A stretch of DNA of 60,323 bases, filler included, from Dirinaria sp. TL-2023a (Eukaryota), in NCBI GenBank assembly GCA_051941275.1. It is 7 parts of 7 records of this genome, joined end to end, with 100 filler letters (N's around TTAATTAATTAA, not from the genome) between each part and the next. Parts side by side here need not be neighbours in the genome. Positions count along the whole stretch, not along the records: positions 34,585 to 43,102 come from JAVEBF010001174.1; 6 more parts are not named here. One strand, written 5' to 3'. The position numbers were made by a program, and so were the translations under genes. This document shows, in pieces, positions 17,222 through 52,210 of the stretch. The notes below the pieces were generated by a model. It worked only from the letters and a program-made list of their open reading frames with translations. It ran no database searches and was not told where the DNA came from. Every line of letters begins with the position of its first letter. Position 1 is the first letter of the stretch.

Positions 17222-17321
17222 NNNNNNNNNNNNNNNNNNNNNNNNNNNNNNNNNNNNNNNNNNNNTTAATTAATTAANNNNNNNNNNNNNNNNNNNNNNN
17301 NNNNNNNNNNNNNNNNNNNNN

Positions 17322-21600: not shown

Positions 21601-22797
21601 TGAGATAGCGTCATGAAGATCCCCTTCACATCTACAGCCCAGGAGGGAACGATCGCTGAACCAGACGTGCCTATTTCAGCCTCTTCGGGGTTGTGATTGG
21701 TTGCTCATCGTCCGGCTGCTGAGCTTCTTCAGAGTTCGATAGTGAAGACGACCAGCAAATAATAGTAGATACTTCCTGCGACACTTTAGCTTGCCTGAAC
21801 CAGTTGGGTACATGTAGATTCGAGAGTCAATTGTATCCGAGGATCGTTGTATCCATAGCAAGGCTAAACGGGCCTGCATCGTTGACTTGGGGGTTTTTTT
21901 TTTTTGGCTTACCTGCGAGTCTGCGACGCACCGATGCTGCAAGCCAATGCAGCTACCTGGGATGACCGGCTTGACGCGCTACAAAGCACGCCTGTAGTTT
22001 TGTACAGGTACCGAGTACACACAGTAGTAGTGCCTTTGGAAGCAATGGGGTTTGGACTTTGGAGAAGGATGGAGGGGTGCAATTGGACCAATAGTCATGC
22101 TATTCTGCCATGTTTCGCCTTCATGCACACATCATGTATCTCAACGGTTAGAGTTTTCTCTTTTACCTTACCTCACCCTCTGTTACAGTCACTGTACTTT
22201 CCCTTTTTCCCTTGGAGAGCTCAGAAAAGGGTTTTCAGCCAAACAGCCACCTCCTTCACCACCCCCCCTCATTTCTTCGCCTTGAATTCCTCGCCAATCA
22301 CTCCTCTCGCCGTTTCGAATTTCCTTCCATCGGCGGAGGCAAGATTTACTTTACAAGATCGGCTTTGCAGGCATCGCCGCGTTCCCTATTAGTATTGCGT
22401 TTCACGCGCTTTGCCAATCCGGAAACTTCCAACGACTTCAACGCTCATCTTTCCCTTCTTGGGCCATTTGATCCGCTCTCCTTCAACCGTCCGTTGGTCG
22501 CCCACCGCCAATTGTTGACCTTTTTGCCCTTTGCCTCCAGTCTTCACTGTAAGTAGTACGCTTATTTCGACGCCGGCAAGAACACCATTGCCATTCACCT
22601 CCACTATATTATCTCTGGCGATCTCATAAGGCAGATGGGGATCTTCCGCGCGTCCAAGCTACCAAGCCGTGCAAGCATAACCATACCTTACATATACATG
22701 GCTCTACTTTCCCCCTCTTGTATATAGGTCTTTCCTGCCCTTTTCCGCCCATCTACACTGTCGTGCTCGACGTCTTCAAGGTGCAATACTCGCATCT

Positions 22798-24312
22798 ATG
22801 TTGCTTACACTAAAACCTACTGCGCAGAACGGCTTCGGTATCGGTGGCCCTCATGCGTACCCATCTCCGTTACCTACATCCAAGGCCTCCTACTTCTCCC
22901 CCAAGGGAGCTTCTGCCTCTCTTCCTCCTCTACCGGACAAGACCCCGCGAAGTATGAGCACGCCTCACCGAGGTTTGCCGCCCCCGGCGGCCATGACCTT
23001 GCCTAACCCCGAGCGTGGCTCCTCAACAAGCACTTTGTCGATGGGACAGCTGCCCGCCGCACCCTCGTCCTGGCAAGGCGCAGACGAATCCATGCGCAAC
23101 TGGCTGAGGGCAAAATCCGAGGAAGACCGGCGAAAGCAAGAGGAGGAGAAGACTCGACAGGAATCATTACGACTCGAGCAGCGCAAGATAGAGCAGAACA
23201 TGCTACGAGAGTCGCTATCTGGAGGTGTTCCCCCCTACATGGTGCCAATGGTCTTTGCTGGCATAGGCGGCGCCAATATGGCCAATGCGAGTCTTGAATG
23301 GACACAGCACTACATGGCGCAATTGAGCTTTCAACAACAGGCGCAGCTACAGCAACAGCAACAGCAACAGCAGCAGCAGCAGCAGCAGCAAGTCCAATCG
23401 CAGCCGCGAGCTGAGCCCGAGCAATCGCACAACACTCGACTCATTGCGGGCCCCCAGCCAAACCCTTACGGACCTCAGCAGCTACAGCAAAACCAACAAC
23501 CTACTCCTTCGCAGCAACATGGTACTCCCCAGAATCAATCTACCACCGGATTTGTCCCGTCTTATCAAGCTCCGAGAAATTCACAGCCGGCCTTGCAAGC
23601 CGCTCCCCCTACATCAGCACCCAGGATCACGCCTGCGTCGTCCTCGTCGACGCTACCACGACTCAACACTGTAGACATGCAAATTCAACCTCCGCCTCCA
23701 GGTCCAGTACCAGGTCAGCAACACGCCATTCAACAAACTCAGAACAGTCCGCAGCAAGATCAGCAGTCTCAACTTCATTTCCACCATTGGGTTCCGCCAA
23801 ACACGCAGGCTGCTAAAGACCCACCTACTCCTTCTACAAAGAGCACTCACGAATCCCCATTTTCGCACAATGCATCATCTCATCTTCGATCGGAGTACCA
23901 GCATTCTCCCAAGAAACGCAAAACCACCGGATCGCATCCTTCCGGTGGGGGTTCAAGCGTCGCCGAAACGTCGCCACCCTTCTCGCAAACCTCCTCAACA
24001 TCCACATCGGGAAGGCGACGGGGCCATTCTCGGCAGCGAAGTGATACCTCATCACGCGCCGGTGGCGCTGGGAACGAGCCAGCTACGTATCGACCTCGGG
24101 GCAGGACGGAGAGTGGGCGCCAAAGCTTTTCGGAGGCCGAAAATGGAAATCAGAGGCACAATTCGGCGCAACCTGAAACACGCCACCAGCAGCCACGCCC
24201 GGCCAATTCGGCCATGAGACAGTCATCACGAGACGTTGCCCCCATTATTGGCAATAGTGAGCGCAGCCAAAACAGCAGTCCAAGACGAGAGCCTCTCGAA
24301 GGACCATCATAG
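22798..24312 (+). CDS. Q/P/S-rich, largely disordered fungal protein (probable nuclear regulator), 504 aa
   Basis: One compact helical block MRNWLRAKSEEDRRKQEEEKTRQESLRLEQRKIEQNMLRESLSGGVPPYMVPMVFAG; poly-Q; FHHWVPP; NLS-like PKKRK. Confidence 0.85.
   Translation: MLLTLKPTAQNGFGIGGPHAYPSPLPTSKASYFSPKGASASLPPLPDKTPRSMSTPHRGLPPPAAMTLPNPERGSSTSTLSMGQLPAAPSSWQGADESMRNWLRAKSEEDRRKQEEEKTRQESLRLEQRKIEQNMLRESLSGGVPPYMVPMVFAGIGGANMANASLEWTQHYMAQLSFQQQAQLQQQQQQQQQQQQQQVQSQPRAEPEQSHNTRLIAGPQPNPYGPQQLQQNQQPTPSQQHGTPQNQSTTGFVPSYQAPRNSQPALQAAPPTSAPRITPASSSSTLPRLNTVDMQIQPPPPGPVPGQQHAIQQTQNSPQQDQQSQLHFHHWVPPNTQAAKDPPTPSTKSTHESPFSHNASSHLRSEYQHSPKKRKTTGSHPSGGGSSVAETSPPFSQTSSTSTSGRRRGHSRQRSDTSSRAGGAGNEPATYRPRGRTESGRQSFSEAENGNQRHNSAQPETRHQQPRPANSAMRQSSRDVAPIIGNSERSQNSSPRREPLEGPS
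23333..23392 (+). repeat. CAA/CAG trinucleotide repeat encoding poly-Q
   Basis: Direct reading. Confidence 0.9.

Positions 24313-25605: not shown

Positions 25606-25640
<35 letters not shown>
25438..25640. repeat. (CAG)n microsatellite (~25438-25462) and poly-A tract (25607-25640)
   Basis: Direct reading. Confidence 0.9.
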
Positions 25641-25643
<3 letters not shown>

Positions 25644-26274
25644 CTTTCCATAAACACAGCACTCGATATGCTAGATTTACGTTCCTAAAGAGCAGCAGCA
25701 CTCAGTTGCAAAGCTATCTATCCGCTTCCACAAAACACGCACCATCATCCTCTGCATCTCGAACCAACCCACCCTTATTCCAAACCTCTCTATTTCTATC
25801 TATCGATTTATGCCCCGCTTCTTATCCAAGAGCGTCCTTTCGTATCTAGACAAGACNNNNNNNNNNNNNNNNNNNNNNNNNNNNNNNNNNNNNNNNNNNN
25901 TTAATTAATTAANNNNNNNNNNNNNNNNNNNNNNNNNNNNNNNNNNNNNNNNNNNNGTGTTACGTGAATTATTCACTCGAAAGATCTGAAGAAAGAATTT
26001 GCTTTTTATTTTTCTTATTTGAATTGAGGTTTTCAGCGGTAAATTCCAAATGATCAGTAATTGGGAGTCGAGGGTGCTTGTGTATGAGAAACGGAAAAGA
26101 CGAGGAAGCAGAAGAAGAAACATTAAATTGTGATCTCGGTTTTTTTTGTTTTTTTTTTTACTTTTTTTTTCCAAATATTCTGTGCCGTGCCGTGCCGTGC
26201 CGTGGATGGTACTTATACATTTCCCGCAATGACATAGAGAGATGAGAGAGCGCGATTTGTTGTGAGTCAAGCGA

Positions 26275-27493: not shown

Positions 27494-30400
27494 TCACACT
27501 TCCGCAACGGACGCTTTTGCTTGAGCGCTCTCTGCATCGCTCACTTGCTGTTTGGACTGCCTGAAATGGCTCCTGAAGATTCCAGAGATAAATCGTCCGT
27601 GCTTTTGTTCTAGGTTCTCTTTGCTGGCGGATCTACCTATGTCGAGGCTGTCGTCGCTTGAGAAGTCATGACTAAGATCAATCTCCGGTATCTTGACATT
27701 TGTCATCTTCGCCTTTTGTACAACTTTCTTCCGTGCTTTCGTGTACTGTTTCTTGATTTTCCTGAATTCTTCTTTGCTCGATTCTCTCTCAGCTTTCAGT
27801 TTCTTCCGCGCAGTTCCTAAAGTTTCGCCCTTTTGCAAGTACTTTCCCAGGTCGTCAATGCGTGGCATCGCCATGAATCTCTCAAGGTTGCCCTCATGAT
27901 AGTTTGTTTCCTTTCTTCTCAGATCTCGCCGCAGCTCATCAGCCGTGTCGTCTATTTTGATATTCTTCTTGGCTTGCTCTTCGGCAGAGGATATGGTATG
28001 GGATAAGATGGACTTATGGTCCTCTTCCGAGATCTCCTGTTCAAGACGCCGATTTGGGTAGCGCGGCAGTGTCAAGAAGAGAAGCTTGGTTAGATCAAAA
28101 AGGTTTTGACATGCGAATTTAAGGATAGTGACAAACAGAAAAGGAGGGAGCACCAAAATACCAACAATGATTTTTCTGGTGTCTCTTCGCCATTGCTGCT
28201 TTTCTTTGAGCTCTATCCCGCGCTGTTGCTTTCTGCGCATTTCATCCGTGACAGATTTTCTCCGCTCGAGAGGTCCAGTTTTCTCCCTTTCAACGGTGTT
28301 GCTAGTTTTAGGACCGCCAGTAGAACCAATTGTCTTTTTATGCTGTTTGTGGCTTTTCCTTCGTGCTGCTAGAACACCACGAGCAATCAGAACATTCTGG
28401 GCTGGCATTCTGAAGAGCCACCAGTACAAGGCTTTAAGGACTGCCCTCCATTGGCTATCACCATGTTCGAGAATAGAATCGTCTTGAGGCAAACGCAGGA
28501 TCTCGTTCTTGTAATACGCAATATTCCGCATCGGTGTGCCAGCGTTAAGCAAGAAGGCAATCGTCGCAAGAAGCGCCACGGCAGCAGCAATTATAAATGG
28601 TTGCACTATTGCTCGGTCGGGTGCTCCTGTCATCGCAAAAACGCTAGCAACAAAACTAAGTGGCAGGAAGATGACTGTGGCGTAAGTGAAGATGCGGACA
28701 TCGTCTGCAGAGCGATTCGACATCCTTGCTTCCTTTAAAGCAAGATCATCAAGGAGCCACTGGCGCAGTTGTATGGCATGTTCGATCAGACCTTCAGTAC
28801 GCTCCAACAGGGAACTGATATTGTGAACCTGACCTTTGCATTTTTTAGTCGAAAGCAGAATTTCCGCACCGTAAGCTGCCTGGTCGTCGCGAGTCCAACG
28901 AGGCTGCACCTCGCGAAATTTCGCACGGTCATCCCATTCTTTAGCAATGCTATAAACGCCTCGAAGGCTTTGCTTTACATCAAAGAGTATTTTGATGATA
29001 TCTCCATAGAGAACATACGTCTTCTTGTTCTGCTCAAAGGTCTTCTTGAAGGTATCGGATTTTTTCGAATTGTAGAAGCGGTTATCCTGCTTGATGTAAG
29101 CATTGCGTCAAAGATCTCGGTTCTTGACATACATCTTTTCGAATTAGTTCAGAGACATAGTTCAAGATCCGTTGTGTTTCGTCGGCAACATATTTCATAG
29201 CTTTTGCGAACCATCTCACCTCCAATACCTTGCGCTGACTATGAAATGTATTCTTATTACCCTCACCGGATGGGTTAGTCAGCGCGAATGAATACTCATC
29301 AGCGAAGAATGAACGTCTCTCGTTAGGTATGTTATAAAAAACGTGGCTGGTCCAGTATCGATCATTCAAATCGCCACAGAAGTGGACACTGATAATCGAT
29401 CTCTCAATCATCCACTCAGGCCGACCTGGACACGGTCTCAATCCTTCATCAAACAATGAAGGATCATTACTTCCAGAACCAATATAATCATCGTCTTCAT
29501 ACTCGTCACTGTCGGAATCCTCGGGATCAACTGGCTTATGAATGATGCTGTAGAAACTAACATGTAGCTCTGTGACCCAGGTATTGATCCGCTTTCGAGT
29601 CTAAGAACCGGTTGTTAGTGTTGTAGTCTCAATTGATCAGTGAGAAATCTTTACTTCATCTCGCAAGAACGTTTCTCGCTTCTGGTGTCTCATCATGAAG
29701 ACGGGAATATAAAAATTCTCTAGGCCGACACATCCAAACAAGACGCTCATGGCCATCCGAATAGTGCATTGGTCAACGGATCTGCAAAGTCAGCGTCTTT
29801 GATGATAGGTTCAATCTGATGCTTTCAGACATACATCAGTCGCTTTTTTATCTCCGATTTTGATCTAGTCGTGCAACGGAGTAGCTCCAGTAGTTCGCGA
29901 GGCCAGCACCATTTTTCTCGTACTGTTTTATCGTTTCCTTTGGCCTTGGACTTTACAACATCGTCAACGACAGCCCACTTCTTGCTAGACTCTCTTTGGA
30001 AAGAAGATTTATTAGTCATCCAAAATTCTGAGAGTTTTCCAATGAAGGCTTTTAAATCTTCTGGAACCTGATAATAGTCGTCATATTGCCATCTCTCTAC
30101 TATTTCTTGTAAAGCCCCTAGATCGCAAGATCGAACTTCGTTCGTGAAGATGTCAGGGTCATTGAAAAGCCAGTCTGGTTCGCAAGGGTTCTCAAAAACT
30201 TGCGCTTCGTCGACAGCTGCATAAAACCCACGTTTTCTTATGGATCGCACGCTCTTCTCATGTCTGTAATTCCCATGATTCTGCGTCCATTCGAGAAGCC
30301 CCGAGGCAAGTCCCTTAGCGTTGAGGAGTTTTAAAGTTGGACGGATCAACGTGCTACAATATTGCTGCCGCAGAAGATAGTAAGGAACATCGAAGCTGGA

Positions 30401-33299
30401 ATTTCTTGCACCTGTTGGTTTGAATAGCGGCGATTGGGTAAGCGGATCTATCTCTGCTGCGATTCTTCCATCGACTAGAACACTACTTGAAAGAACCTTT
30501 GAGCATTGTTCAGCCATCACCTTCGCATCGATCGAATTGTCAATCGAAAATCTAGAGTTCAAAGCCAATATGAGCGCCAACACATATCGGTTTGGTTTTT
30601 TCCAGAGTGCTGCGTGTTGAAAAGTTTGCATTTTCAAAGATGACCACCACTCATCAAATCGGTCTTGCGTTTCGCAAACGCTTGAATCATTCGTTGATCT
30701 CGAAGATGCAGGCTTCGCAAACATCCCACCATCATAGCCTTCACAGAGAATGATGCTCTCAGAATCCCAGTGGAACCGAGGTTTCTGCGTTCCGTTGCGG
30801 CTAAATGCGAGCAGACGCCTTTTGGAGCCTTGGGCTTTGTGATCGGGTACTTTTTCGCTATTCGTTTCCAATGACTCGAAAGTTGGAAACGTGTGATCAT
30901 AGCTGAACCTCTCAAGAATTATAGCTTGTAATTCTTCCACAGGGACCAAGTCTCGAGAACAGCTGGCTATCATCGACTTGATCTCGCCACACACAGTTGA
31001 CTCACTATCAGATTCAGCGAATGCCGTAGAAATCATGGTATGGACGGCATTGATCGCCTGCCAGATAAGAACAGAGTGACAGAGGGAATAGCAAGGAACT
31101 TCGATACGGTAAGTGGAAGTGTAGGTGTCTTCAACCTTCTCAAGATACTCTGTTCTGTCAGACTGCGCCCACAGTCCTGCGTTCACATTTCGTGACGATT
31201 TCAGATAAGCGATCCAACCTTCAAGCCGTTTTGCCAAAGTCTGGGAAATATAAACCCTTTCCAATTCCAGATAATTCGACGCCTCAAAGAGCTTGAGGAA
31301 GTGGATGGCGCCTTGTGAAAGGTCGGATTCATCCGTGATGCGAGATCCAAACGGCCGACACCGAGTCGTCCAGGTTTTGGAAGAGGTCATTTGTGCGACG
31401 TCGAAACACCATTCCAGATGGCCTCTGCAAGTCCTGAGAATACACGATTGGAGAGAAGCTTTCAAGTATGGGTCGGCAATATTACTCATAGCGAGTAGTC
31501 TGTACATATCAGTAAGAAACCGGAATTGATTCCTACGAACATTAGCCGCCACTTCTTCAGAAATACATGTCTCAGGCGGCTTTACAAGCTACTATTGCTG
31601 TCCTGATCTGCTTCGAAACAATGACCATCAGAGAAAAAATAAGTCGGTTTCTCATTCCTATTCCAAGGCACAGGGATTGCTGTAACGAATAACAAGTGTT
31701 GTAGGTGGCGTCGGAATAAAAAATTGGTTTTTCCATCACCGAGCGAAGTAGTCCAATGTCCGCAGCAACTTGATACTAAAAAGTCCTGCGTATCAATGAA
31801 ACGTGGCACTCGAAAATCAATTAGCGCATAAATTAGGATATTTTATTTGCAAACATCTTACCGTGATCTTGGCCAATCCGTTTCCTGATCTGGGCAAACG
31901 CCTCATTGAAGGCTAGCAACAGAGTGCGTCTCGGGACCTCGAGAGATCCCTCGTCAAGATACCCCCAGTATAAGAAATCCTCTTCAAATGACCCTGTATG
32001 CCATTCGACCCCCAAAAGACGTTCAGGTGACATGTTCTCTCCACCCCAGTTGGAGAAGGGCACAGTTGTATTACACTTCTGCTCATCATGCTGCTCAAAG
32101 TCTTTCTTCTCCATCTCCTCTAAATCGTGAGCTGATTCTATCGGCATACCCTGGCCGAAGAGGCTTCTCACTCGATCATTGTGGTCACTATTCTTAGCTT
32201 TATTATACTCTTTCATAAACTCCTCCTCCCTCTTGCGGTGATTTTTCTCGTTGTACCGCACCGAAGCTTCTGGCATCAGATGCATCGAGTAAACTTCATC
32301 TCGTTTCCACTCCTCGCATTCAAAGTAGTAGATGGCTGTCATTGTCCTAGTCTCGCCTTCTAGTAGCTCGAGCTCATGTTCTTGGGTTAAACTAGAAACG
32401 ATCCTCAAGTCGCAATTTATCTTCGCCGACGGATCTGGCACTATATAGGGCACCTCATCTGTGAGAGAGGCGGGTTCAAAGGAGAGATCAAGCGTGACTG
32501 GCTTTGCATCCTTGAAGAGTGATGCTAAAAAGCGAACATGACCCCCAGGTCCGCCAGCAAGAGCGATTGCTGTTGCACCAGTTGTAAATATTCCACCATC
32601 GACGTAGCAAGTAGGCCTCATATTCTGGGGCCTCTGGTAAGGCTCATCAACAATAAATGCAGCGTCAAAAGCAAATTTGACATGCACCCGATCCTTGCCT
32701 CGTAAAATGTAATGTTGAATAACGCGCCTATCTTTGATAGCAAGCTGAATTTCGAGATCCAATTTCTCGGATTGTGATGAGATTCTCGGCCACCGGTCGT
32801 GCACAAAGTCAATCTGGTGAGAACCATGGTCAAAAAGATTGTCACGGATGAGACTAAGACCAATTCCAGACCTGTTTCCCCGAACGATACCATTGAATGG
32901 GTGGTCTGCTTCTGACTTTGAGAGGAAATTCGCTCGAGCTCGGAACAATCCAGATGGACCCATATTCAGCATTTGCACAATGCTAATCAGCTCGCCGTTT
33001 TCATTCACATATGCAGATGTCCCATCGCCGTCCCCAAAGGCAATATCTGATGGAATCGAGTGGCGATCTTTGGGCGGCGTTTGAAGAGTGCACTTCTCAT
33101 CTAGAACTTTCTGCTTATCGGAACCTATCCAAGGAGAGTCCGGTGGATTCGAGAAAGTTTGAACAGGTGACAATATCGACGTTTCGCCTTCTCCAAGCTC
33201 GGGTAATCTTCCATAAAATGGGATAGCCTCGACGTATTCATATGGGTCTTCCACGTCGTAAGGCATAAATTTGGGCCTTTTCCAGAAAAAGCAGGCCAT
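27494..33299 (-). CDS. Large (~1848 aa) protein with a C-terminal CorA-like membrane module; exons 33299-31862, 31808-31586, 31532-29835, 29781-29655, 29600-29133, 29086-27494
   Basis: Five 46-54 nt GT-AG introns join the track ORFs into one open frame (5547 nt); SNRSADDVRIFTYATVIFLPLSFVASVFAM is a CorA-like TM1 preceded by a helical stalk. Confidence 0.85.
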
Positions 33300-34584
33300 C
33301 TTTGAATTTACTCGCAGGGAAAACAAGATCGTCTATATCTGAAGTGCGGGTATATGTTCATTTCCAAATCTAGCGACCACTTTGGTCCTTGTCCTGCGGT
33401 CTGGAAGGCTGGAGGCTAAGAAAGCCGAACTTTCGATCGGTGGCACCAAAGCAATGCCAGCCACCTGCTGGGCACTGAAAGACATGGCTGCAAAGTATTG
33501 AGAGGGAGGATCTAAAAGATCAGGGTTTCTTGAATGCGACAGGACTGGAAATATGCATGCTGAAAATGGTCTGGGGGCATGGTGGTCAGCCTCGGCACCT
33601 TATCGGTTATTTATCTGCATCCTGGTGACCCTCAGCTGTCCTATTCTTACTAGCCATAAACATCATTGCGCTTCCGCATGCTGTAAGGGCGGAGAACTCG
33701 CAACTTTGTAGATGCTGACTGTCCTTGCCCACAGATCTTCAAGCGTTGCTCTGTCCGGTCATCTAGCAGGTGAGTACGGAGTAGTAGGATTCGCTACGAT
33801 CACAAGTACTGTGCCACGAACATCGAAGTGAGCCCTTTTCAGCATTGTCTTGTTCGGACTGGCTAATAAAACTTCCAAAGCCTTGGAAGGTTCTGGACGA
33901 TTGCAGTTCCGAGGAACATGCACGATGCTGCATCAGTCCACCCGGCTTATCTGATGCCCCAATTCGGGTTAGGGAGGCTCGGGAGGGGGAATTCACGCCG
34001 AAAGGACTACAAAGCCTCCAAACTTTAAAACACCTAAACGGTTACACTACCGGATTGTATACCAAATTCTGCGAACGAACTTGCTCAAACCGAGATGACA
34101 GAACAACACGGCTGTCCACAGATATCAGGACGCTGCTACTAATGGCCGCAAGCCAACCAAAGGGCCTTTACTGATCATGCAAGGAGGCGCAGATCTAATT
34201 ATTCACACGCCAACTGTAGAGGCTGTTATTAATGATACTGTGCAAAAAATCTCCAAGCTCGCAAATAGAAATTCCACCTACTACCAAATGTAACGCACAC
34301 GCCTACTATGTACGCCGGTCTGGAAAGAGTAATATGTCGCATTTACTAGAAAGAGAAAAAAAGAAACGAAACTTGATCATCATTACTTTTTGCATTATGT
34401 ACCGCCATGTAAAAATTGTCTCATTCTACCAACCCACCTTTTTTAAAAATAAAAGGGCTCCTTTAAGAGCGCCTCACCTCTCTCNNNNNNNNNNNNNNNN
34501 NNNNNNNNNNNNNNNNNNNNNNNNNNNNTTAATTAATTAANNNNNNNNNNNNNNNNNNNNNNNNNNNNNNNNNNNNNNNNNNNN

Positions 34585-35116
34585 GTGAAAATTTCGATAA
34601 AACGCAAATGAGAAAACGACAATTGAGAGAGCGCGTAAAAAACGACGAGTGAAAAAAAATTCGAATCATGTTTTGTCAATGAAAATGCAAAATCAGAAAT
34701 AAATAATATCGTGATCGTGATAAAAACATTTCGACTAAAATCGACGACGCTGAAACTAAAAACGATCGTCGTCGCTCGATAATACGAAATGCAGATTCGA
34801 ACGAAAAGTTTTGAGACGATATTGAAAAAGTCGACAACTACGTGAGCTGTGCGAACGAAGAGAGAAAAGAAAAAAAAAAAAAAAGAACAAAAAAATAAAA
34901 ACTATTGACGAAAACAAAAAAAAAAGAACGTGTTCGAGATCGATATTAATTGTTATTTTTCGTTGTCGTCGTTTTTTCAGTAAAAAGACGAAGACTCTAC
35001 GTCGAGTTGTCATTTCAATCACTGCGAATTCATTACGCTCGAAAAATCTGCTGATCTGATCTCGAATAAAATGACGATCAAGCAGCAGCTCATTTCGAAA
35101 AAGACGCAGTCATTTC
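34585..35116. other. AT-rich hypermutated (RIP-like) tract lacking CC/GG dinucleotides
   Basis: Manual scan found no CC or GG in 532 nt, while CG, TCGA, CA and TG persist. Confidence 0.8.
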
Positions 35117-35666
35117 GGTCACTCAAAATCGCGCGACGATCACTCAGATCGCGCGACCTTAAGACGGCGCTCACTCGAGGCCCGATGCGGGGTGAGGCCG
35201 AGGCAGATTTCTGTCTTCTTGGCAATGGCGGGCATTTTGCCCGAAGCGGGATGGCGTCCTTTTCCCTCGTTTGGGGGAACAACACAAGCAACAGTAAGAT
35301 ATCTTGGAGCAGAGTGTGTCCTCTCCTTGAAATATGAACGAGTGTCGCAGTTCGATTGTTTGACAAGACACCGGGTGCGATATTATTTGAAGCACGTACT
35401 GGAGGTTGTCCTTTGCTTGCTGTTACCCACCACCCACCCCCCGCAGCACGGAGGTTGGTTTTGTGTGGCAGGAGTGCAGCATGCAACTGTATGTACAACA
35501 GCGCATAATCGTTCATCCACCGCCCCCAGTTTCGGGTGCACAATAATGTTGGATCTTACTTTATCTTTAGCATGATCAGACTGCTTTGGAACTACCTCGA
35601 GTAACAACAAAACAACAGTGCTTTGCGCCACGCCGGAGCCTTCTTTCTTCGCGTCGCGCTTGAGAT

Positions 35667-38600
35667 CTAATATTGGTAACCCCGAAATTCCACATTTCCT
35701 TCCTTCACCGCTTTGGCGAGTTTCCATGCCTCCTTGCTCTTCGTCGGCGCGGCAGAAGCAATGCTACTGTCCAGCCAGTCAATGACATCGACAAAATGAG
35801 TCTGCTTTCGCTTCAAGACGTTGCGGAACGCTTGCGCTGCGAGCCTGCATTGGTTTGACCACCAGTTAGCCGCGTTTCGACTTAACCAGTTCGATCGCTT
35901 CTCGAAACTGGAGACCACGAAACGTCCCCTCAATAATAACATCATCCCACTTACCACTGCACTTGCCCCTTGCTGATTGCGCAATTGTAGTCGCTCAGCG
36001 CATGGTCCTGGTGTTTAGCCTTGACCAACGTATATGCGAGGTTACCGAGATCCCTAATGGTATCTGGGAGGACTGTCAATCTCTCTTCGTTCAAGCCCAC
36101 TGCGAAGAGGCGCACTTACTCACGAGGAGTGTCGCATGGGGACTCGCAGCTGCACGCATACATTTCTGATAGCGATAAAACTTCATCGCCGTTTCGTAGA
36201 AGTTTTTGTATACCGTGGCAAGCACCGTTTGTCGTGAGTTGAATGTGGTGTCAAGGAACATCCGATGCGTTTGGATTTTGAAGGCGCTATGAGATGAATC
36301 AGACCAAGGAGACTCTTCGTGTTCGATTGCTCGTACTTCAGAGTTTTTCGATAAAATGTCTTGCCTGGCATTTTCGACTCCTCCACAGTGAGAGAGTCCG
36401 ATAGTACTGACAACTTTCAGACCCTGATATTTCCACATTCAAATACAGGAGAGTCTTACCACTCTCCTTTCTTCGATCTCGGTCCTTTGTTATTTCCAGC
36501 GTTGTGGTATTGATCAAGTTTCCACAATATGGAAAGTCTGTCTTGCAATGAGCTATCTTACCATCCACGGACGCTTCAAAGTTCGTAAGGCTTTTCGCCG
36601 GGTTAACTTTCACTCCGTAAGGCTCTATTCCACCATGCATTACTCGCAGAAATCGGCTCGCATGATTTTTGTTCGTGGTAACAAGCAGGAAGTCATCAAT
36701 CAGCCTCAGGAGAAGGCTCTCATCGTCTTGCAGGAAGCTCAGGTACTCATGCTCCAATTCTGCATAGAATAGATTGCACAGCAGGCTTGACAGGATGGAT
36801 CCCTGGGGTATGCCTGCCTTCTGCTTGTAGAACTTTTTTCCGATCTTAACCATATTAGCTTCCACATGCTCTTCGAGCAAAGCTAAAATTGCCTTTCTTT
36901 GTTGGCATGCTTGCAAAACAAAGTCTACAAAGACGGTGTTCCGCTTTCCGCTCGCTAGCTCATTCTCGACCGCACTATCAAAATTGATGAATTCCCCAGC
37001 GGACCGGGCTGCAGCAGCAAATTTTCTGGCCGGTTTTGACCAAGCCTCCAAAACCGAACCGTTGCGGTAGGATCCTACGTTCTTGATCTCAGCGTGGCGG
37101 CATATCCTGTAAAGGTCTTCATCCAATTTCTGCCTTACCATCTGGACGACGCGCTTTTGAGGAATAGTATCAAAGCAAGCTTGAACATCGCATTTGGCAA
37201 AGTAGAAACGCGTAGGCGACGAACTGGCGGTTTTGGTGTGATTTTGGAAGGCCTTTAATTTTGGGTACATATCACCAACAGAAAACAGAGCCGAGCCTAC
37301 GCTGGCTGGATGCTTCTTCCTCAGATATTCAAGGATGTTGAACACTGGAGTCATAATGGAGTTTATACTCCTTCCCAGGACAGGCTTGCCATTCTTGGAT
37401 TTATTAACACGTCGCCGCAAATTCATAATTGGCCTCATTCCCTTGGTTTTAGGCAGAAGTCGTACTTGACTGAATCCTAGGGTGCGCGCACCAAGGACCT
37501 TCAATGCTTTCATGGTATTGACTTCTTCGAACATTGAGCCTCTGATCTTGGCTAATGTGGGTTCCGCCAACGCCCGCCAGACATCATGGCGAAAATAGAA
37601 AAGCCGGTTTCGATGGACATTTGATTCGGTGACATGAAAATTTGACCGAATTAGAGGTATGAGAAGAGAGTCGAACAGGTAATAAAGAAACTCTAAGAAA
37701 ATCTCGGTTCGTTTCTGCATATCAGAGAGTGCCATTTTTTGTGCCCCCTCTGAACGGGGCGGGCTGAGCCATGTGATAGCTTTCATCTGTACCTCCGTGA
37801 GCTTCCTCAGAAAATTCGGCACTGCTGCTTACTTTTACTCCCTGGAACACAGTATGCAACGATAAAGATTCAAACTTTCGAAGGTGCACGAATCGATCAA
37901 CATAAAACATGATGTGAGTCTTATTGTCTTTCCCATCATCACCTTCGCCCCAGAAGTGATCAGGGATGAGATTGGTCAAGACAGCTCGACAAAAGGCTGA
38001 AACATTGGACGCCGGAGTTGCGATATCCATGAATGAACACTCTGTCGTAGGACTTTCCACCTGGCCGCTCTCCGCCTGTCCATGAGTACTTTGCGAGGGA
38101 TCAGAAGCGTGACTATTAAGCTGAGATTGGCGATCCGCAGCCATTTTCCTGGAGCCAGTGGCGCGACTTGGAGATGGAGCATACTGTAGACACAACGGTG
38201 AGTACAAGATTGGTTTACTACGGAAGACTATCAGAATATACCGTTGCATCGCAGTAATGCTTGAGCAATTCTACATATGAACAACGAGAATGATTCCTCT
38301 GCAGCTTCTTGACCAGCTCTACAGGGGATCCTCGAAGTCTTCTTGGCAGTTTGCATTTGTCTGTGGGTGCGTCGCCTGAAAATGCACCGGACCGCAATTC
38401 CAGCGCTGGCCGATAGCACTTCTGAGCGATTTCCTGTTCCCGCAGCGTGTAGTCTTGGAATGGCTGCTTGGTCTCTCTAGAATCGACAGTCGACGTAAAC
38501 ACGTTGTGGAGGCCGAATTGCCGGGGAAAAACGTATTGCATGACACGCATGGTATGGTTGAATTGGTTCGAATCAGGGTATCTGTTTAGAACATCTCTCA

Positions 38601-39823
38601 GGCGTTCAGCAAGCGATACTGGTACATGTTTCAAGACGCTTACGAATGTGACGAAGGCCAAAAGTCACCTGGCCTTTCGCATTGACGGTAGCACGCGCAT
38701 GGAACATTCTGTTGCGTACGAAATGGATGGAGCAAGGGCTGTTACAGGCCTTTTTAGGGCTCTGCGTACTATGCTCCTTGGACGCTGTAGTCAAAGACTT
38801 TGTCGCAGCCTTACGATCCAGATTGCTTAGATCTGCCAGGGGTCGAAGTTCCGTCAAGGGGGTTCCTGGCGCAGATTCAGCCAAGACATGAGCGAGCACA
38901 AGTCTGACATTGTACTCTTACCGCTCAACTGATAGAGGTTGCTTTTGCCGTTGGCGACCGCCATAAAGATGCCACACTTCAGAACAAGCTCGAGCATGAT
39001 TTTGTCGCCTGCCTTACCCAGCAACCCTAGTGTATCTATCCATACCGAGCTCTTCAGAGTATTGACATGGCTATTTGGGTAATGCGAGACTACACCGGGG
39101 ATATTACCAATGCCGCATTGCTCATTCAGAGCGTTTTTCTGCGCACCGACCCGCTGATAACCATGACACAACATGTGCGGGGGTCTATGTATGTGGCGAT
39201 ATCTCCTATGGAAAAGGAGCCAGATCGCAAAATCAATGATCTGCGCTTACCTTAGTTAACGACCTTGTTCTATCTTGCTTCCAATGCGAAAGAGAGGGCG
39301 GTAGCTGCGCTTCCAGAGCCACCCTGTTTCGACCGGATACTGAAAGAAGACTTATATTGTGGTCTAAATAAGTTGAACGTACCTCGGATTGTGGTGTGGT
39401 ACCTTCGACTAAGCTGCTGCCAGGTGTCAGAGATGACTGCTGAGAGAAAGCTGCGAAGTCCTGTTGAAGCGATCCATCGTCCTCATAGATGGTATCGCTG
39501 TGAAAGCACACCAATGTTTTGTCCAAAAGCTCAGCAAGACGCTGTCCACTGCCGAGAATTGGCTCTGAGCCATTCTGAGCTGTTCTTGTACCGGCATCCA
39601 CGACCTTTCGAATCCTCGCTTTTGAAGCTGGGCCTGACAGCCGTGACAAAAGATAGGCGCGTAATGTAAGGACATTGGGGTAATATAGACGCAACGTTGG
39701 ATGCTGGATTAATCCGGTGTTGCTGGGGAAGCACGTCCCTGAAGCATCTCTCTTCGCTTTTTTAGCATCTCTGGCAGGTTCAGTCGTGGTCTTCTTCTGA
39801 CTGCGCTTCCTCTTGCGTGCCAT
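35667..39823 (-). CDS. TERT: Telomerase reverse transcriptase, ~1178 aa; exons 39823-39383, 39240-38922, 38865-38644, 38594-38242, 38183-37833, 37786-36460, 36406-36337, 36286-36120, 36063-35955, 35844-35667
   Basis: TEN (NLYQLSG), VFPRQFGLHNVF, T motif FHVTESNVHRNRLFYFRHDVW, motifs 1/2 RLLPKTKGMRPIMNL, A KCDVQACFDTI, B' GIPQGSILSSLLC, C LLRLIDDFL, E FPYCG; spliced length 3537 nt stays in frame. Confidence 0.98.
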
Positions 39824-40026
39824 TGCCTAAAGTCTGATATCTAACACAAGCCACTTGGGCGTTGATTTTGAACTGCAGACTATGAAGCTGTCAACAGAAA
39901 TGAGAGCCCAACGGATCTGAACTTCGGACTTAATGATCCCACCGCTGGGTCTACTTTGTGGTCATCCACAATCCTACTAAAAATGTCTCGCAATTTCAAG
40001 CTACCAACTATGAGACTCGGTCATTC

Positions 40027-40100: not shown

Positions 40101-41173
40101 GTTTTTAGCATTTGCTGAACTCTTGTCGCTTCTTGGCAGTTTTCTTTCCTCTTCATTTTTCCGACGCCATTGTGAAATATAGAATCAGCTTTCGCAATCA
40201 TAATAGCTACTAGAAATTTTGCATTTCTAGAGTGCAGCTTACTTCATCATTTTTCGCAAGTAAGCGAAATGTGTCGCTAGATCTATTGCTACCCCAAATT
40301 TAGGCCCTTCAATGGATATCAATAATGAAGTCTCAGGCTCACTTTCTAACCCCCAGCCTCGGCTTGGGCTGCAGGGAAATCACAGCAAGGAACTAAACCT
40401 CAAGCCGCGATTTCTGAAGGAATAATACGTAATAGTCAGCCATTCTGGTCTCGGGATTTTCTTTTTGCTGTACTAATTAATATATCTCACTCAGTAGTCA
40501 CTCGGCAATTTTCTTGAGTAAAGTAAGGTATGCTGCAGACCATTTCATCACTTGCCGGCGCCACACCAGATCTTCTCCAGATTCAGGAAGATCTTTCCCC
40601 TTTAATCTCTGTTTCAGGTTCGTTTGTGTGATTCAGCTGCATAAGCGCGGACCACTTTCGCTGGGTAATGCTCAGAATGCTGCGGAGTTCCTGGCATGAT
40701 ATAAGAGCGCCAATGAACGCGGTATTTCTGGATCTAAAAATTAGCAGGCACCTGAGTCCCTCTCCTTCTAACACCGAACGCGTGCCTGGTCTGCCTTGCG
40801 GCATCTAGGCATGTATGCAATACGCACGAGGTCGAGGCTGGCCCCTAGGTTTGAAGGCTTGAAGCTCGGCATTATTGGCGGGCGTTGCAATTCGACACCT
40901 TCCTCCTTCGTTCGTGTTGCCCGCCATCTTGAAGACTTTAGGTAATAATTCCAACGACATCGCTGCTCCTGGCCCGCCCACAAGCTGGAGGGTTATCGTA
41001 GGCTTGATGGCCTCGTCTCTACACAGCGTGTGCAGATCCAGTTACTCTGATCTGCAGTTCATCTTATCTCCCGCACGGCGTAGTATGGCGTTTTTAAGTG
41101 TTCAAAAGTTGTCTTCTCTTCCGTGATACCATCCATTCCCTTGGCGATATTCCCATCGCCCACGGCATCTAAG

Positions 41174-42583
41174 ATGCAGTCCTTCTCTCCGTATGCAGTC
41201 CCCGAGAACCAGCGCCCTCAATGGAAGGTCGGAGAGGAGTTAGCAGCAAGTGCTTTCGTTGGCATAACGCTGTTCCTGGTGGTCGAAAACCTTTTCGAAA
41301 TTGTTCGGTTATTTAAGAAACGTCAGGGCTTGTATTTCTGGAGCATGATAGTTGGCACCTGCGGCTGCGCTGTGGATACGTTGGGAATCATTCTGAAATA
41401 TCTTACACCGCATTCAGCAATCTGGGCCTTGTACACCTTGTGTATGCTAGCAGGCTGGTCAATGTACGCGTTGTCGCAACTTTTGGTGCTGTATTCACGA
41501 CTGCATCTGGTGACCCACAATGCAAGGGCCCAGCGGTGTATACTTGTGGTCATACTTTCGACTGTCCTATGGATTATGCTCCCGACTTGGGTCGTGGTCT
41601 GGCCTGCTTATGATACCGACCCTATGGTTTCATCGCTGTGGTCGCCCAGGGACGCTATTGTGGAACGATATACGCAGATCGGCTCTACTCTTGTAGAATG
41701 CGTCGTTTCTGGGGTGTACATTCATTCATTAATTTTGCTTCTCCGTTTTAAGACCAGCGTTCGCCAGCGCCGAGTCCTGCTCGATCTTTTATACGTCAAT
41801 ATATTGGCCATTGCTTTCGACGTCCTCACCATCATCCTGGTCTATCTGAATCAGCTCGGCTCGAGTCATCCCATCCAAACCTTCAGCTACGCGCTTAAGC
41901 TACGCTTGGAGTTCGTTACCCTCAACCAGCTGATGGCCGTCGCCGCACGTGGGCTGAACAGAGAGACATTTGAAGAAAAGCGATACCACCACACGTCCCA
42001 ACAAGATTCCTTCTCCGCTGAGCTGCGCAGATTTGGCGAGGCCTACCCTACATCGTCATCAGACCCAAAAAGCGAGTCGGCAGGGCAAGTAGAGACCCGA
42101 CAGGTTCCGAATCGGGAGGACCCTTCCAAGCAATCCCTCCAGATATCAGTGCCTTCGCCCGTGCTTTCAAGAGGCCACCATCTATCGACGAGCGTTTCAT
42201 CGGATAAAGCACTGCCTCCCCCTCCTCCTCGTCCAGCGCCGCATACTTCACCTAAAGGGGACCTTTCGGAAAAATCATTGCAGCTACCGGAGAGCCCGAT
42301 TCTGAAAGCCGAGGACCCGCCTCCTCATCGTCGACGCATCAAGGCGGCTTTACGCTCTGTACGCCCGCGGTCATGGCGGGATCCAGATAGTACGGAGTCG
42401 AGGCCGCTATCCAGGCACGGAGGAGAGATTGGCGGCCGAGAGCGAGAGCGTCAACCCAGACGCCTGACCTACAACGATGAAGAGGAGGAGCAGGAGGAGG
42501 AGATCGGGCTGCACATGTGGGAGAACCGGGGCAAAGTCATTCTCGAGGTGCCGTGGTTCAAGAATCCCGCCCAAGGTGCCTAG
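41174..42583 (+). CDS. Fungal polytopic (about 7 TM) integral membrane protein with a long disordered C-tail
   Basis: GLYFWSMIVG, LVLYSRLHLV and YALKLRLEFVTLNQL motifs; seven hydrophobic segments; first ATG at 41174. Confidence 0.85.
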   Translation: MQSFSPYAVPENQRPQWKVGEELAASAFVGITLFLVVENLFEIVRLFKKRQGLYFWSMIVGTCGCAVDTLGIILKYLTPHSAIWALYTLCMLAGWSMYALSQLLVLYSRLHLVTHNARAQRCILVVILSTVLWIMLPTWVVVWPAYDTDPMVSSLWSPRDAIVERYTQIGSTLVECVVSGVYIHSLILLLRFKTSVRQRRVLLDLLYVNILAIAFDVLTIILVYLNQLGSSHPIQTFSYALKLRLEFVTLNQLMAVAARGLNRETFEEKRYHHTSQQDSFSAELRRFGEAYPTSSSDPKSESAGQVETRQVPNREDPSKQSLQISVPSPVLSRGHHLSTSVSSDKALPPPPPRPAPHTSPKGDLSEKSLQLPESPILKAEDPPPHRRRIKAALRSVRPRSWRDPDSTESRPLSRHGGEIGGRERERQPRRLTYNDEEEEQEEEIGLHMWENRGKVILEVPWFKNPAQGA

Positions 42584-44213
42584 AAAGAAAATTTCCCCCA
42601 AATCCGGTGGGGTGGCAGCGGATATGGTGTAATACGGCCCCCGGCGCGCGCCCTATATACACTACAAGGTGTGTGCACGGGGTGCGCGATCCGCGATCCG
42701 ATTCGGCTTCATTCATGTACATATCTTATAATTTCAGATAGAGCAGTTAATATTATTGGCATAGAAACTCTTCCGCCCCCCTCTTTCCCAGCCTACATGC
42801 CCCTTTTTGACATCCGGCAAAAAAAAAATCTAGGCACCGAACTATCACCCATGCCCTCAGACAGGCTCTCCTTTCCGAAAAAATTTCTCTGGTAGATTTA
42901 GCATTTTTTTATTTCCCTACTTTCTTTCTGTTGCACGTAGATTGCTTGTTGTTGGTTTTCTTACAGGATCCAACTTACCTATGTCTCCATTTTTCGTTCT
43001 CATTTCTCTTAGGGGAATTGGTTTATGATTCATATCTACTGTCTTTTCTTTTTTGCCTTTTTTTTCTACCTTTTTTTTGGAGGGGGAAAAGCAAGGAGGG
43101 GGNNNNNNNNNNNNNNNNNNNNNNNNNNNNNNNNNNNNNNNNNNNNTTAATTAATTAANNNNNNNNNNNNNNNNNNNNNNNNNNNNNNNNNNNNNNNNNN
43201 NNCCCCATCCCCATCCAACAGCTCCTCGAAAACCGCCACCCCCACCAATAACAAAACCAAAAAGACCCCCAATCCCTAAACCAAGGCCCCATAACACAGC
43301 GCGATTACCCATGCTCTCGTCTGCGCGAGAGAGTCTCCCTAGACAGGGCGCGCAGAGGTATCCGCGTACAAATGTACCGAGACCGAAAGGGCGGTCGGTG
43401 TATGCTGAGGTGATGTTTGCGCCGAGGCAGAGTAGGCATGGGGGGTGGTATTTATGAATAATGGATGGGTATGTTCTTGGGTATCAGTGCGTTGTAATAA
43501 TGAGATCGAGCTCAGGGGGCGCTGATGATAGGAACGACTTCTATCTAAGTTGGTGGAATGGGGATGACTCAAAGTTTTTTCTTTTCTTTTCTTTTTTTGG
43601 GGGCGCTACTGTCGCTTTTTTTACCCCTATTTCCTGTACTGATAGAAGACGCTTTGTTAGAAACTGATGTTTTTAATGACGCATCAAGGATGATGGATTT
43701 GCCAGGAGGATTTGGTTCCTTGAATACAGTACACATAACCATGCGAAGGCGTTGGGTTATAAGCGAAATTTCCCCAATGCCCCTACTCTTTATTTTTAAT
43801 TACTTATTTTTATTTCTTTATCTGGTAAGGTGTGCTCTTTAATGTCTCATATTTGTATTATATCCACTGATTCGCTCTCATGGGGTGCGAATTGTCAAGC
43901 AAAGAAGGCTGAATCAAATGGCGATGGACTGATTCACGGCGAAAGTGCCACTGTCAAATAGACAGATTGTTAAAGCCCAAAACCCTCGAAAAATATATGG
44001 CGGAGGCAATGCTAGATCCATCAAGCCGCAGAAATGTAGGGCGCTGTGGTCGCAGTTCCACCCTTATTCATTACCACCAAAGAAAAAGTCCTTAAAAAAC
44101 CCGGAGTACTCGCCGACTCCATACCAAATTCTAGCACCACAGACCACCGCATAAACCATCCATAAGCCACACCAAAGCAATCAAATCCCATAACACCACT
44201 GATACACACGGCA

Positions 44214-47200
44214 TCAACAAACGATCTCCGCCCAATCATCCACATCCCACTCCTCATCAGCTTCCAGCCCCTCCCTATCCTCAATGAGCTTTTGATGCGG
44301 CGCAAGAACCGGTGACTCCTGCCTCGCTTCTTCTTCACGGTAGGTATCGATCAGGGGTAAACTGTATTCGTGCTTAGGATCGATCGTTAGCAGGCAGTCA
44401 GGAATACCCGCTGGAGCGGGTGCTGGGACCGGATCAGGCGCTTGGTATTTGATTAACGCTTTTGAGGTGTCGATTTCAGATTCTGAGTTAGAGTTTAGAG
44501 GGGTTTGGGGGATCTCGGTTTCGGACTCGTTTGGGGATATTAGAATTTTTGGTCGTTCTTCAGGTGCTGTCTCTTTTTTATTCGACTTATTGGGCCCATT
44601 TGGAGACGGAGCCGGTTGGCGGCTTTGAGCGGGAACGTCTTGGTTGCGAGCTCGATGCATTTCTGCAACAGCCTGAAGGCTGGGTGAGAGCTTCTGCTTC
44701 TCCTCCTCAGTTGGATTTAATAGCTTCGCAATACGGTCTTTTAGGATCTGGTAGTGCTCGAATATCTCTGTACCAGGTAAGAATTCAAGGCGATAGTGCT
44801 CTCCAATTCTATTGATCCAAAGAGCTAGATCTATCCCAAGCGCTCTCAGGTCTTCGGTCGAAGTGCGCGCCTTCTCAAGTGCTTCGCGGGCTTCGATGCG
44901 TGCCGTCTCGCTCGCCCGCCACTGCTGCCACAGACGCTCATTTGTAGGAGGATCACGGCTGGCAAATTGTTTTATTAGACTTTCGACTTGCTCTTCCGCT
45001 GCGATCATTCTTGAGGTATTGCATTCGTGAGCTTCGTTAGCAAGGACTGAACTTTCCTCGTCTCTTGCTCGCGTTTGCTCCATGACCGATATTTTGTGCT
45101 CGAGTTGCTTGTGGCTCTCGTTGAGCTGGGCAAAGCAATTTTGCAGTTGCTGGTAGTCATTTTTCAGCTCGTGCAGAAGCATTTGTAAGCCTGCGTCTCC
45201 TTTCGCGTATAGTAGGGTAGTCATGCTGTTGAGTTGGGCATGGGAATCCTGCAGGACACTTTGGATCTCTTTGTCTTTGGCTGCGAGATCTTCTTCGTGG
45301 CAAGAAATGTCTAATTTCAAACGTTCCAGCTCGCGACTGGTGTTTGAGTTCAAGCAGCCTAGCTCAGCAATCTCGTCACTCTTTCTAGTGCTTTCTGCTT
45401 TTGCAGCCTCGTACCCGGCTCTTAACGAAAGAACTTCCCCGACTATTTCCGACTCTCGGTCCCTGAGTTTGCTGATTTGACTACCTTGGAGACGGTTGTG
45501 ATCGACCACAATCTTGTATCGATCATCAAATGCATCTACACATTCCTGGTCTTTGGTTGTCTCTTTGAACATGGCTAGTAGTTTGTCGTTGGATTGGAAA
45601 AGCAAATCTACCGTACGGGATTTGTTGATTATGATATCCTCCTGCGTGGCTAGTTTCTTCTCGAATGACATATTCTTCCATTCCGCGTTCTCTTGTGATA
45701 TACTGAGCTTGCGCTGAAGCTCAGCGTTGTCGGCAAAGGAGTCTCCATACTGCTGCTCGAGTTTTCGATAAGCTGCGTCTTTCGATTTGAGGTGCTTGTC
45801 TACTTCAGCGGTTTTCGCAGGTTCGTCCTGCATAGTACCCATCAAGATCGATACTTTGTTGTTCTCGACTTCATAATCCATTCTAACTCTTGCCAGCTGT
45901 CTGAGAACCGTGTCTTTGAGTGAAAGAGCTTGATCTAACTCCTTCTCTAATTCAACGCTACGTGACTTTTCATGTGCTAATTTACGTGCTGACTGTTCTA
46001 GTTGAGACTCTGGTAGGACCGCCGCTTCCGTGTTTTGCAGCGAAAGATTCTCTGCGTCTGGTCTCCGTGTCCATCCTCGGTCCGTCATCCACTGATGGAA
46101 GGAAGGCAGGGATGCGTTGCTGACACATCCAGTATCTAAATCAGTAGAGTGCTCTAGTGGATTTGACTTTTTTTGCTTCCGCTCCCTATCTTGGGCCTCT
46201 AATTCGCTTTGAGCTCTTCTCAACTGAGACTCGACTTCGCGCAGACGCTCGAGAGCGTTTTTCTTCTCATCTTGAGCAAGCTGCTTTTGGTCATTGACGC
46301 TCTGGAGCTCAGCTTGGTGGTTCTTCATAATTTCTCTCAATTGCGCCCCATGATTGTATTGGAGGGTTGCAATGGTCTGTTGCTGGTCTCTAATTCTCAC
46401 CTCTGAGAACAATGCTTCGTCTCCCAGCCGCTTTCTGTTTGTGGACTCTGAGTCGTGAGGAATTGCAGAAGCAAATGCACTGTTGTCGACGCAAGCTTGG
46501 TATGATTTCGATGGATTAATCTTGTCATTCTTCGGAGAATCCAACGTTGGTGCGCAGAGCGACTCCTTCTCTACCATCCCGACAGGCGCTGGCACAAAGG
46601 TTGTTGGCGTTGGATTTATGTTCTGGGATAGAGAGTCGCCTTGGTCATTATTTGAGGATGTCTCAGCCCCGGAGGGTGTGTAAGACTCATCTTCAGCTGG
46701 AGCAGCATCTTCTTGGCAACTTGCGTCTGTAGACGAAGTACTCTCAGAGTACTCAGCATCTGTGTGAAAGATACTTTTAGATTGCATTTCCTTTTCCAAA
46801 ATGCAAGATGAGGGGGCACGATTGGAAGCGGCTTTATGCTTGTCGACCGACACAGAAGAATTTGATTGATCGATTTCTTGGGGTATCTCAACATATGGCT
46901 GTAAAGCTGGACCTTCTTGATGTTTTGGCTTATCAAGGGTGACTAGTTTGCTGTGCTCCTTAGGCTTCATCTCTGCAGTCTCACCTTGCAGCTGATGAAT
47001 GTGATTATTGATACTGCTCTGAGTGCTGAAAGCTTCTGAAGCTAGCCCTGGTATGTCTGCAGACTCAGTGGGACTTGGAGTGATCTGGTGGCCGGTGACT
47101 CGCTGCGCTATATCCGGACTCTTGCTAGATTTCTTTCTCCCTACAAACTTCAGCCATAGCGACTTGACTCCCTTCTTGATATTCTTTGTGGGAGGCTAGA

Positions 47201-51718: not shown

Positions 51719-52210
51719 NNNNNNNNNNNNNNNNNNNNNNNNNNNNNNNNNNNNNNNNNNNNTTAATTAATTAANNNNNNNNNNNNNNNNNNNNNNNNNN
51801 NNNNNNNNNNNNNNNNNNGAACTTGTTGGGGGAAAGTGGGTGGTGCATGCTTATGGGCATTCAGGTGCTGGATATCAAAATTCCGTTGGAGTCGCTGGGA
51901 GACTCGTCGGACTAGTGGCGACTATAATGTAGCTCGGAACAGAAGACCGAGCCTTCGGCTTTGATGGAACGGGTTGTAAACCAAAGACTGGTGTTATATT
52001 TCTGTTGAGTGGACAGTATAGTGAACAAAGTTGTTCGAGATTTAAGGGATGATGGTCACTTCGTATTTCATCGCTGGGGATTCAGTACAAGCCAAGACCA
52101 AGGAAGTTTTCCAACCTCGTCCATTGCAAGAGCTTTTGGGATTACGATATGCGGGCTCATCAAATTCTCAGCATAGAATGAGTTGGAAATGTTTTTTGGT
52201 GTCAGCCGAT

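Follow-up and report, generated by a model that had tools for sequence, protein, structure and literature searches.

The first 532 nt of a contig that carries the telomerase reverse transcriptase (TERT) gene of a lichen-forming fungus, positions 34585 to 35116, form an A-rich and CpG-rich tract that contains neither CC nor GG. Our main reading, to which we assign a probability of roughly 0.4, is that this tract is fungal DNA after saturating, context-specific C-to-T mutation on both strands; the reading is based on a compositional fit with free parameters and not on observed mutations. As the best single explanation we tentatively favor hypermutation directed at CpC or, more broadly, at CpY, since CpY fits the composition better than CpC alone.

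The DNA analyzed here (the window) is a stretch of 60,323 nt that is not one molecule. It consists of seven contigs sorted by length (8561, 8560, 8535, 8528, 8518, 8516, and 8505 nt), which are joined by six identical, non-biological linkers of the form N44-TTAATTAATTAA-N44 at 8562-8661, 17222-17321, 25857-25956, 34485-34584, 43103-43202, and 51719-51818. Because these linkers are artificial, any gene adjacency across them is artificial as well. The source assembly is highly fragmented and probably metagenome-derived. The tract constitutes the beginning of contig 5 (34585-43102), with 34585 as the first base of the contig. The remaining 13 contig ends lie within ordinary sequence, and the tip of contig 5 therefore need not mark a repeat. 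As a separate observation, contig 4 also opens with 72 nt (25957-26028) that lack CC and GG, have a GC content of about 29%, and contain ACG and TCG; since about three CC/GG would be expected there, this is not significant alone, and we record it as a second contig start of similar flavor. Long homopolymer A runs occur in intergenic DNA (24 nt at 25617-25640 and 15 nt at 34870-34884), and such runs may contribute to assembly breaks. On the other contigs, the genes are of ordinary fungal kinds (Pex24p, adaptin, MFS, CorA-like, and others). No transposon domains were found in the genes of these contigs, and no homologues of the RID/DIM-2 cytosine methyltransferases were found among the scanned ORFs of the seven contigs. 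For six long ORFs of 294-993 aa (22681-24312, 29825-31588, 31833-33332, 44214-47195, 53873-54757, and 55756-57327), Pfam gave no family at E ≤ 1e-5, and these ORFs probably encode lineage-specific or fast-evolving fungal proteins.

The gene adjacent to the tract on contig 5 is TERT, an intron-containing gene that lies on the minus strand at 35667..39826 and was delimited by Pfam, by tblastn of eight homologues, and by blastn to the loci L001-L003. Its minus-strand ORFs matched Telomerase_RBD (E = 7e-29) and RVT_1 (E = 1e-14) in Pfam, with TERT_C below the cut-off. Exons aligned to the eight homologues by tblastn extend from about 38707 down to 35670, and because the C-terminal residues of the homologues align to 35670, the TERT stop is placed at about 35667. 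The N-terminal limit is approximate, with ORFs and blastn homology reaching about 39243-39826. A 496-aa ORF of this gene retrieved 829 relatives, the best of which was 82% identical, and the named relatives at 57-60% identity (Lecanora helva, Heterodermia, Puttea, Caloplaca, and Rusavskia) are all lichen-forming Lecanoromycetes. Judged by this homology, the TERT gene belongs to a Lecanoromycete (lichen) fungus. On the opposite side of TERT, a gene of the DUF7703 membrane protein family (PF24802, E = 1e-22) is located at 41084..42583 on the plus strand and has ordinary composition. The spacer between the tract and TERT (35166..35666, minus strand), which is presumed to be the TERT 3' flank, likewise has ordinary composition, with 6-22 CC+GG per 100 nt, and its long ORFs matched no family and no homologue. 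The distance from the end of the tract to the TERT stop is about 550 bp.

The tract is composed of 227 A, 123 T, 99 G, and 83 C (GC content 34.2%, plus-strand purine content 61.3%, AT skew 0.27 with the plus strand A-rich). From these base counts, 12.9 CC and 18.4 GG would be expected, and none of either is present. In 20,000 mononucleotide shuffles of the tract, CC+GG had a mean of 31.0 (sd 4.7) and a minimum of 15, and the other 1,109 overlapping 532-nt windows of the seven contigs contained 58.7 ± 12.6, with a minimum of 29. The absence of CC and GG over these 532 nt, on which the sequence-only reading had been built, was confirmed against the 31 expected by composition and is real, far beyond chance. 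The same reading had described CpG as abundant and CpA/TpG as persisting, and both statements held on counting. CpG occurs 44 times versus 15.4 expected by composition (observed/expected 2.85), compared with 28.3 ± 7.2 per background window, a level of 44 being reached in 9 of 420 windows; in terms of density, this corresponds to 8.3 CpG per 100 nt in the tract versus 5.3 in the background. As many as 35 of the 44 CpG stand in a WCGW context (TCGA 13, ACGA 12, TCGT 7, and ACGT 3). TCG occurs in 21 copies and CGA in 27, and CpG and TCG are the most over-represented words. CA (22) and TG (27) together retain 49 copies. Among the remaining dinucleotides, TC (37 versus 19.2 expected) and GA (58 versus 42.2) are in excess, while CT (16 versus 19.2) and AG (27 versus 42.2) are not. 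TA, at 21, is far below the 52.5 expected by composition and equals the background level of 24.0 ± 6.5. The ratio (CpC+GpG)/(TpC+GpA) is accordingly 0.00 in the tract, compared with 0.79 in the background.

Canonical RIP is usually called at a TpA/ApT of 0.89 or more, a composite index above 0, and a (CpA+TpG)/(ApC+GpT) of 1.03 or less, and CpC is the least-favored context in RIP of the Neurospora type. In the tract, TpA/ApT lay at 0.48, under the 0.69 of the background, and a composite index of -0.41 was obtained; both values bear out the prediction that CpA-based indices would miss it. The sole canonical index that moved in the RIP direction was (CpA+TpG)/(ApC+GpT), at 0.89 versus 1.30 in the background.

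The number of distinct 4- to 10-mers in the tract gave z values of -0.4 to -2.2 relative to dinucleotide-preserving shuffles. Since its k-mer diversity is as in the shuffles, the tract is complex sequence under a dinucleotide constraint and not a product of slippage. An origin as a tandem or cryptically simple repeat was rejected on these grounds and because TRF reported only three arrays of about two copies and an A run. A period-3 signal was absent from the tract.

The inner border of the tract is sharp. A transition zone at 35117..35165 is very CpG-rich and holds two CC/GG only (35117 and 35157), and from 35166 on CC/GG become dense (35166, 35179, and onward), with 22 of them within 35185-35284. 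Composition is back to normal by about 35170-35200, and the edge at 35157-35166 is abrupt, with no gradient. A return to normal composition by about 35200, less than 500 bp from the TERT stop, had been proposed from the sequence alone and proved correct, the distance from 35200 to the stop being 467 nt. The accompanying idea that the signature may leak from a repeat beyond the contig end was not supported, because an abrupt, ungraded edge speaks against leakage from a neighboring repeat. Inside the transition zone there is also an imperfect 20-nt tandem duplication (35119-35157), in which TCACTCA..ATCGCGCGAC appears twice, with exact ATCGCGCGAC at 35128 and 35148.

For comparison with related fungi, 80 TERT loci with flanks of up to 10 kb were taken from metagenome contigs (868,495 nt in total), many of them from lichen fungi. 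CC/GG-free runs of at least 120 nt occurred only twice in these loci, and the longest was 128 nt. Over 8,384 windows of 400 nt, the observed/expected ratio of CC+GG was 0.89 ± 0.13 with a minimum of 0.48, versus 0.0 in the tract, and the maximum observed/expected ratio of CpG was 1.55, versus 2.95-3.24 in the tract. No second comparable tract was found in the about 930 kb made up of the window, including its other six contigs, and the related TERT loci. The closest loci of the comparison set show 71-74% TERT identity. Among them, L002 and L003 (mutual identity 99.5%) are the nearest that include sequence downstream of TERT, and this sequence is of ordinary composition. A conserved TERT-linked element was therefore rejected as a candidate, because the downstream region of L002 and L003 is ordinary and is occupied by another gene. 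That gene (12481-15044 in L002, and likewise in L003) has SBE2_M and RabGAP-TBC matches and no counterpart within the window; either the synteny downstream of TERT is broken or it continues beyond the contig end.

Searches for a parent copy of the tract were negative. A transition-only process preserves the string of purines and pyrimidines, and hence a mutated parent was sought in this two-letter space across the seven contigs and the 80 loci; the best matches (87.7-89.7 bits) were purine runs and no better than those of reversed decoys (83.8-85.7 bits). In nucleotide and translated searches against the 80 TERT loci (blastn with word size 7, and tblastx), the tract gave poly-A matches only, and no second copy, paralogue, or orthologue of it was found in the 60-kb window or the 80 related loci. 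Plasmids and vectors as well as phages gave no match to the tract in blastn, and one exact 26-mer from it had 0 matches in prokaryotic genome contigs and viral contigs, which is a weak test. Six ORFs from the tract and the adjoining border yielded only sub-threshold noise in Pfam (best match E = 0.027, scoring 14.6 bits where the cut-off is 27), with no transposon, reverse-transcriptase, or gag remnant, and three ORFs compared with large protein collections had 0 hits. Rfam returned two sub-threshold matches on the tract (20.1 bits against a gathering threshold of 95, and 18.8 against 70).

We simulated exhaustive conversion on both strands of 840 background windows and compared the resulting dinucleotide counts with those of the tract as z. 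Without mutation, the sum of z-squared was 100.7, and it fell to 61.9 when the 5' C of CC was converted (CC to TC and GG to GA). Under this 5'-C model, AC, AT, GA, GC, GT, TA, TG, and TT all had |z| < 1.2, and CA, TC, and AG had |z| < 1.8. Conversion of the 3' C, which is the polarity of APOBEC3G, gave a sum of 110.5, worse than no mutation at all (CG z = +5.0, CT z = -3.9, and TA z = -3.2), and a random choice of either C in CC gave 80.6. The flanks of CpG follow the same polarity: the proportions of TCG+CGA, ACG+CGT, and GCG+CGC were 55:34:11 in the tract and 52:28:20 in the 5'-C simulation, compared with 32:21:27, plus 21% CCG+CGG, in the background. The 5'-C polarity points to an activity of the RIP-like or methyltransferase-like kind that reads the 3' neighbor. 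The CpC-to-TpC mutator sparing CpG that had been inferred from the sequence alone fared well in part: the 5'-C polarity, the excess of TC and GA, the CpG and TpA levels, which are not lowered, and the CpG flanks all agree with it, but CpC conversion alone does not explain why AA occurs 126 times versus 48-65 (z about 6), why AG and CT are in deficit, or why CpG reaches 44 versus 28 ± 7.

A better fit was obtained when other contexts were allowed to mutate. The best grid fit, for which two rates were left free and the starting sequences were a selected subset, converted 100% of CpC, 50% of CpT, and 0% of CpA in purine-rich starts. Across 14 dinucleotides its z-squared values summed to 21.0; the highest |z| was 2.6 (CG), and the GC content was 0.337 versus 0.342 observed. 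Any added CpA conversion worsened the fit through TpA. Since TpA in the tract is at the background level, no CpA-to-TpA conversion took place. The fit does not account for everything. A/T runs of four or more number 26 in the tract, versus about 14 in the best simulation. At least 13 of the 26 have no G beside them, as the mutation model would require, so that the A-richness must in part be native. Given the excess of both CpG and A/T runs, the starting sequence would, under this model, need to have been unusual from the outset.

The total loss of CC and GG, together with an excess of the matching products, leads us to context-specific transition mutation on both strands, the only mechanism we can name that would produce this pattern directly. 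In such a process, the target would be a cytosine with a pyrimidine on its 3' side, changed to T on both strands. Every CpC would become TpC (GpG would become GpA as seen on the other strand), roughly half of the CpT would become TpT, and CpA and CpG would be left. The agent may be a RIP-like enzyme or a deaminating enzyme resembling a DNA methyltransferase, as dependence on the 3' neighbor and action on both strands would suggest. The visible 532 nt would then be the inner margin of a mutated block, possibly a repeat or a mobile element, that continues past the contig end, and the abrupt change at 35157-35166 would mark the limit of the element that was targeted. Against hypermutation counts the fact that the tract is a single instance, located at a contig tip and without an alignable partner. 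In addition, canonical RIP, where a fungus has it, should leave CpA-to-TpA changes in a repeat too, and their absence counts against this reading as well.

Several known systems share features with hypermutation of this kind. RIP in Pezizomycotina, which depends on RID or DIM-2 in Neurospora, resembles our reading of the tract in its C-to-T/G-to-A changes on both strands, its dependence on the 3' neighbor, its local GC drop beside intact genes, and its sharp borders. For the lichen fungus Cladonia rangiformis, the available text of a recent study describes strong RIP, RID and DIM-2 homologues, and very sharp boundaries that separate genes from mutated blocks (PMC12542154); we count this in favor of hypermutation. 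The same text gives a GC content of 10-20% for mutated transposons and names RIP as a possible reason for fragmented assemblies. The preferred contexts, however, are inverted. Canonical RIP prefers CpA and raises TpA, whereas in our reading CpC would have been converted fully and CpT about half, with CpA and CpG untouched; moreover, the tract has no known repeat partner, and its GC content of 34% differs from that of heavily mutated lichen transposons. In the accessible part of a survey from 2025 that covered 1,239 fungal genomes, a CpA preference is common to RIP-like defences (PMC12543289), which counts against CpC hypermutation. RIPCAL, in the portion of the article consulted, includes CpC to TpC/GpG to GpA among four formal RIP types, with the index (CpC+GpG)/(TpC+GpA) as its equation 5, and reports dominance of CpA (PMC2621366). 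This index flags the tract exactly (0.00) but stands as a formal possibility, with no fungus reported in that portion where it is dominant. A full-text literature search surfaced no CpC-dominant hypermutation in a fungus in the passages retrieved; PMC5602860 was rejected as a match because 'CPC' there is a culture-collection code. In Basidiomycota (Rhizoctonia solani AG8 and Pucciniomycotina), hypermutation is directed at CpG/TCG according to the text available (PMC4014442), and it is similar to our reading in its RIP-like C-to-T bias in a non-CpA context. That process destroys CpG and TCG, whereas the tract keeps both and its host would be an ascomycete; a basidiomycete-type CpG/TCG hypermutation was rejected because CpG is not depleted. 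Whether a lichen-forming ascomycete possesses a hypermutation system of genome-defence or deaminase type that is a near mirror image of Neurospora RIP, in which CpC is converted far above CpT while CpA and CpG are spared, is a step further, and we regard it as doubtful.

Among the alternatives, two known mutational processes can be weighed directly against the composition. One is canonical RIP, directed at CpA, that acted on a transposon remnant lying at the margin of an AT-rich block. It would account for the GC decrease to 34% beside a gene and for the one index that moved in the RIP direction, and RIP in lichen fungi can be strong and sharp-bordered, as the available account of Cladonia shows (PMC12542154). 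It is nevertheless very improbable: TpA/ApT and the composite index already contradict it, TpA stays at background while CpG is over-represented and 49 CpA+TpG remain, and no tract ORF contains a transposon domain. CpC is also the context that RIP of the Neurospora type favors least. The consulted portion of PMC2621366 describes a dominance of CpA. Even less probable, in our view, is strand-specific editing of retroelement cDNA by an APOBEC3G-like enzyme, in which the 3' C of 5'-CC is mutated and GG becomes AG. The dinucleotide targeted is the same in both cases, and the A-richness of the plus strand could be read in this way. CC/GG is the classic target of APOBEC3G and is removed near-completely in hypermutants. 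But APOBEC3G, a vertebrate enzyme acting on retroviral cDNA, changes the 3' C on one strand, whereas the 5' C is implicated in the tract, on both strands and in a fungus; more generally, an APOBEC-type enzyme reads the 5' neighbor on single strands, while the pattern here depends on the 3' neighbor. CC and GG are both absent, which means that both strands were affected, the simulated 3'-C model failed, its products AG and CT are depleted rather than enriched, and the tract ORFs contain no reverse-transcriptase or gag remnants.

The two remaining alternatives are serious rivals, although each is in our estimation less probable than hypermutation. The first 532 nt may not be contiguous with TERT, being instead misassembled reads or foreign or otherwise unknown DNA in a lichen metagenome. 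The position of the tract exactly at a contig end in a highly fragmented assembly, a shift in composition within about 10-50 nt, the lack of a homologue in any collection searched, and the ordinary region with a different gene downstream of TERT in the closest relatives all fit such an artefact or chimera. On the other hand, we are aware of no artefact of sequencing or assembly by which CC and GG are stripped while the sequence keeps CG, GC, and A/T homopolymers, bisulfite-like conversion would strip one strand only, and the intermediate composition of 35117-35165 is not that of a clean break. A foreign origin merely moves the question, as no organism is known without CC/GG, and the tract had no plasmid or vector, phage, prokaryotic, or viral match, the last two by the exact 26-mer only. 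With a comparable probability, the tract may be native sequence under a constraint other than mutation, such as an intergenic or promoter region rich in poly(dA:dT) and dense with WCGW motifs, or a satellite or insertion specific to the lineage from which CC/GG had always been absent. Such an origin is favored by the A/T runs without the G that the model requires, which make many A runs native, by the absolute enrichment of CpG, which loss of C cannot create, by the prevalence of WCGW among the CpG, and by the long A/T runs in other intergenic parts of the contigs. However, apart from mutation or synthesis, no mechanism is known that fully excludes a dinucleotide and its complement over 532 nt of complex sequence, the tandem-repeat and k-mer analyses gave no origin from a repeat unit, and nothing comparable occurs among the 8,384 windows from related fungi. 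Context-specific C-to-T mutation remains our preferred, if tentative, reading, for the mechanistic reason given above.

If the tract is an artefact, a contig tip that has lost all CC/GG would be a useful quality warning in assemblies of lichen metagenomes. If CpC/CpY-directed hypermutation is true, several consequences would follow. Genome-wide RIP detection uses indices based on CpA and TpA, and part of fungal hypermutation would then be invisible to current tools, with CpG-rich, TpA-poor, CC/GG-free blocks missed by every CpA-based RIP detector. It would represent a variant of RIP-like hypermutation with a new context preference and would imply a different enzyme specificity, either that of an altered RID/DIM-2-type enzyme or that of another deaminase. 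Such a fungus would also be a natural source of a CpG-sparing, double-strand C-to-T activity with 3'-neighbor specificity.
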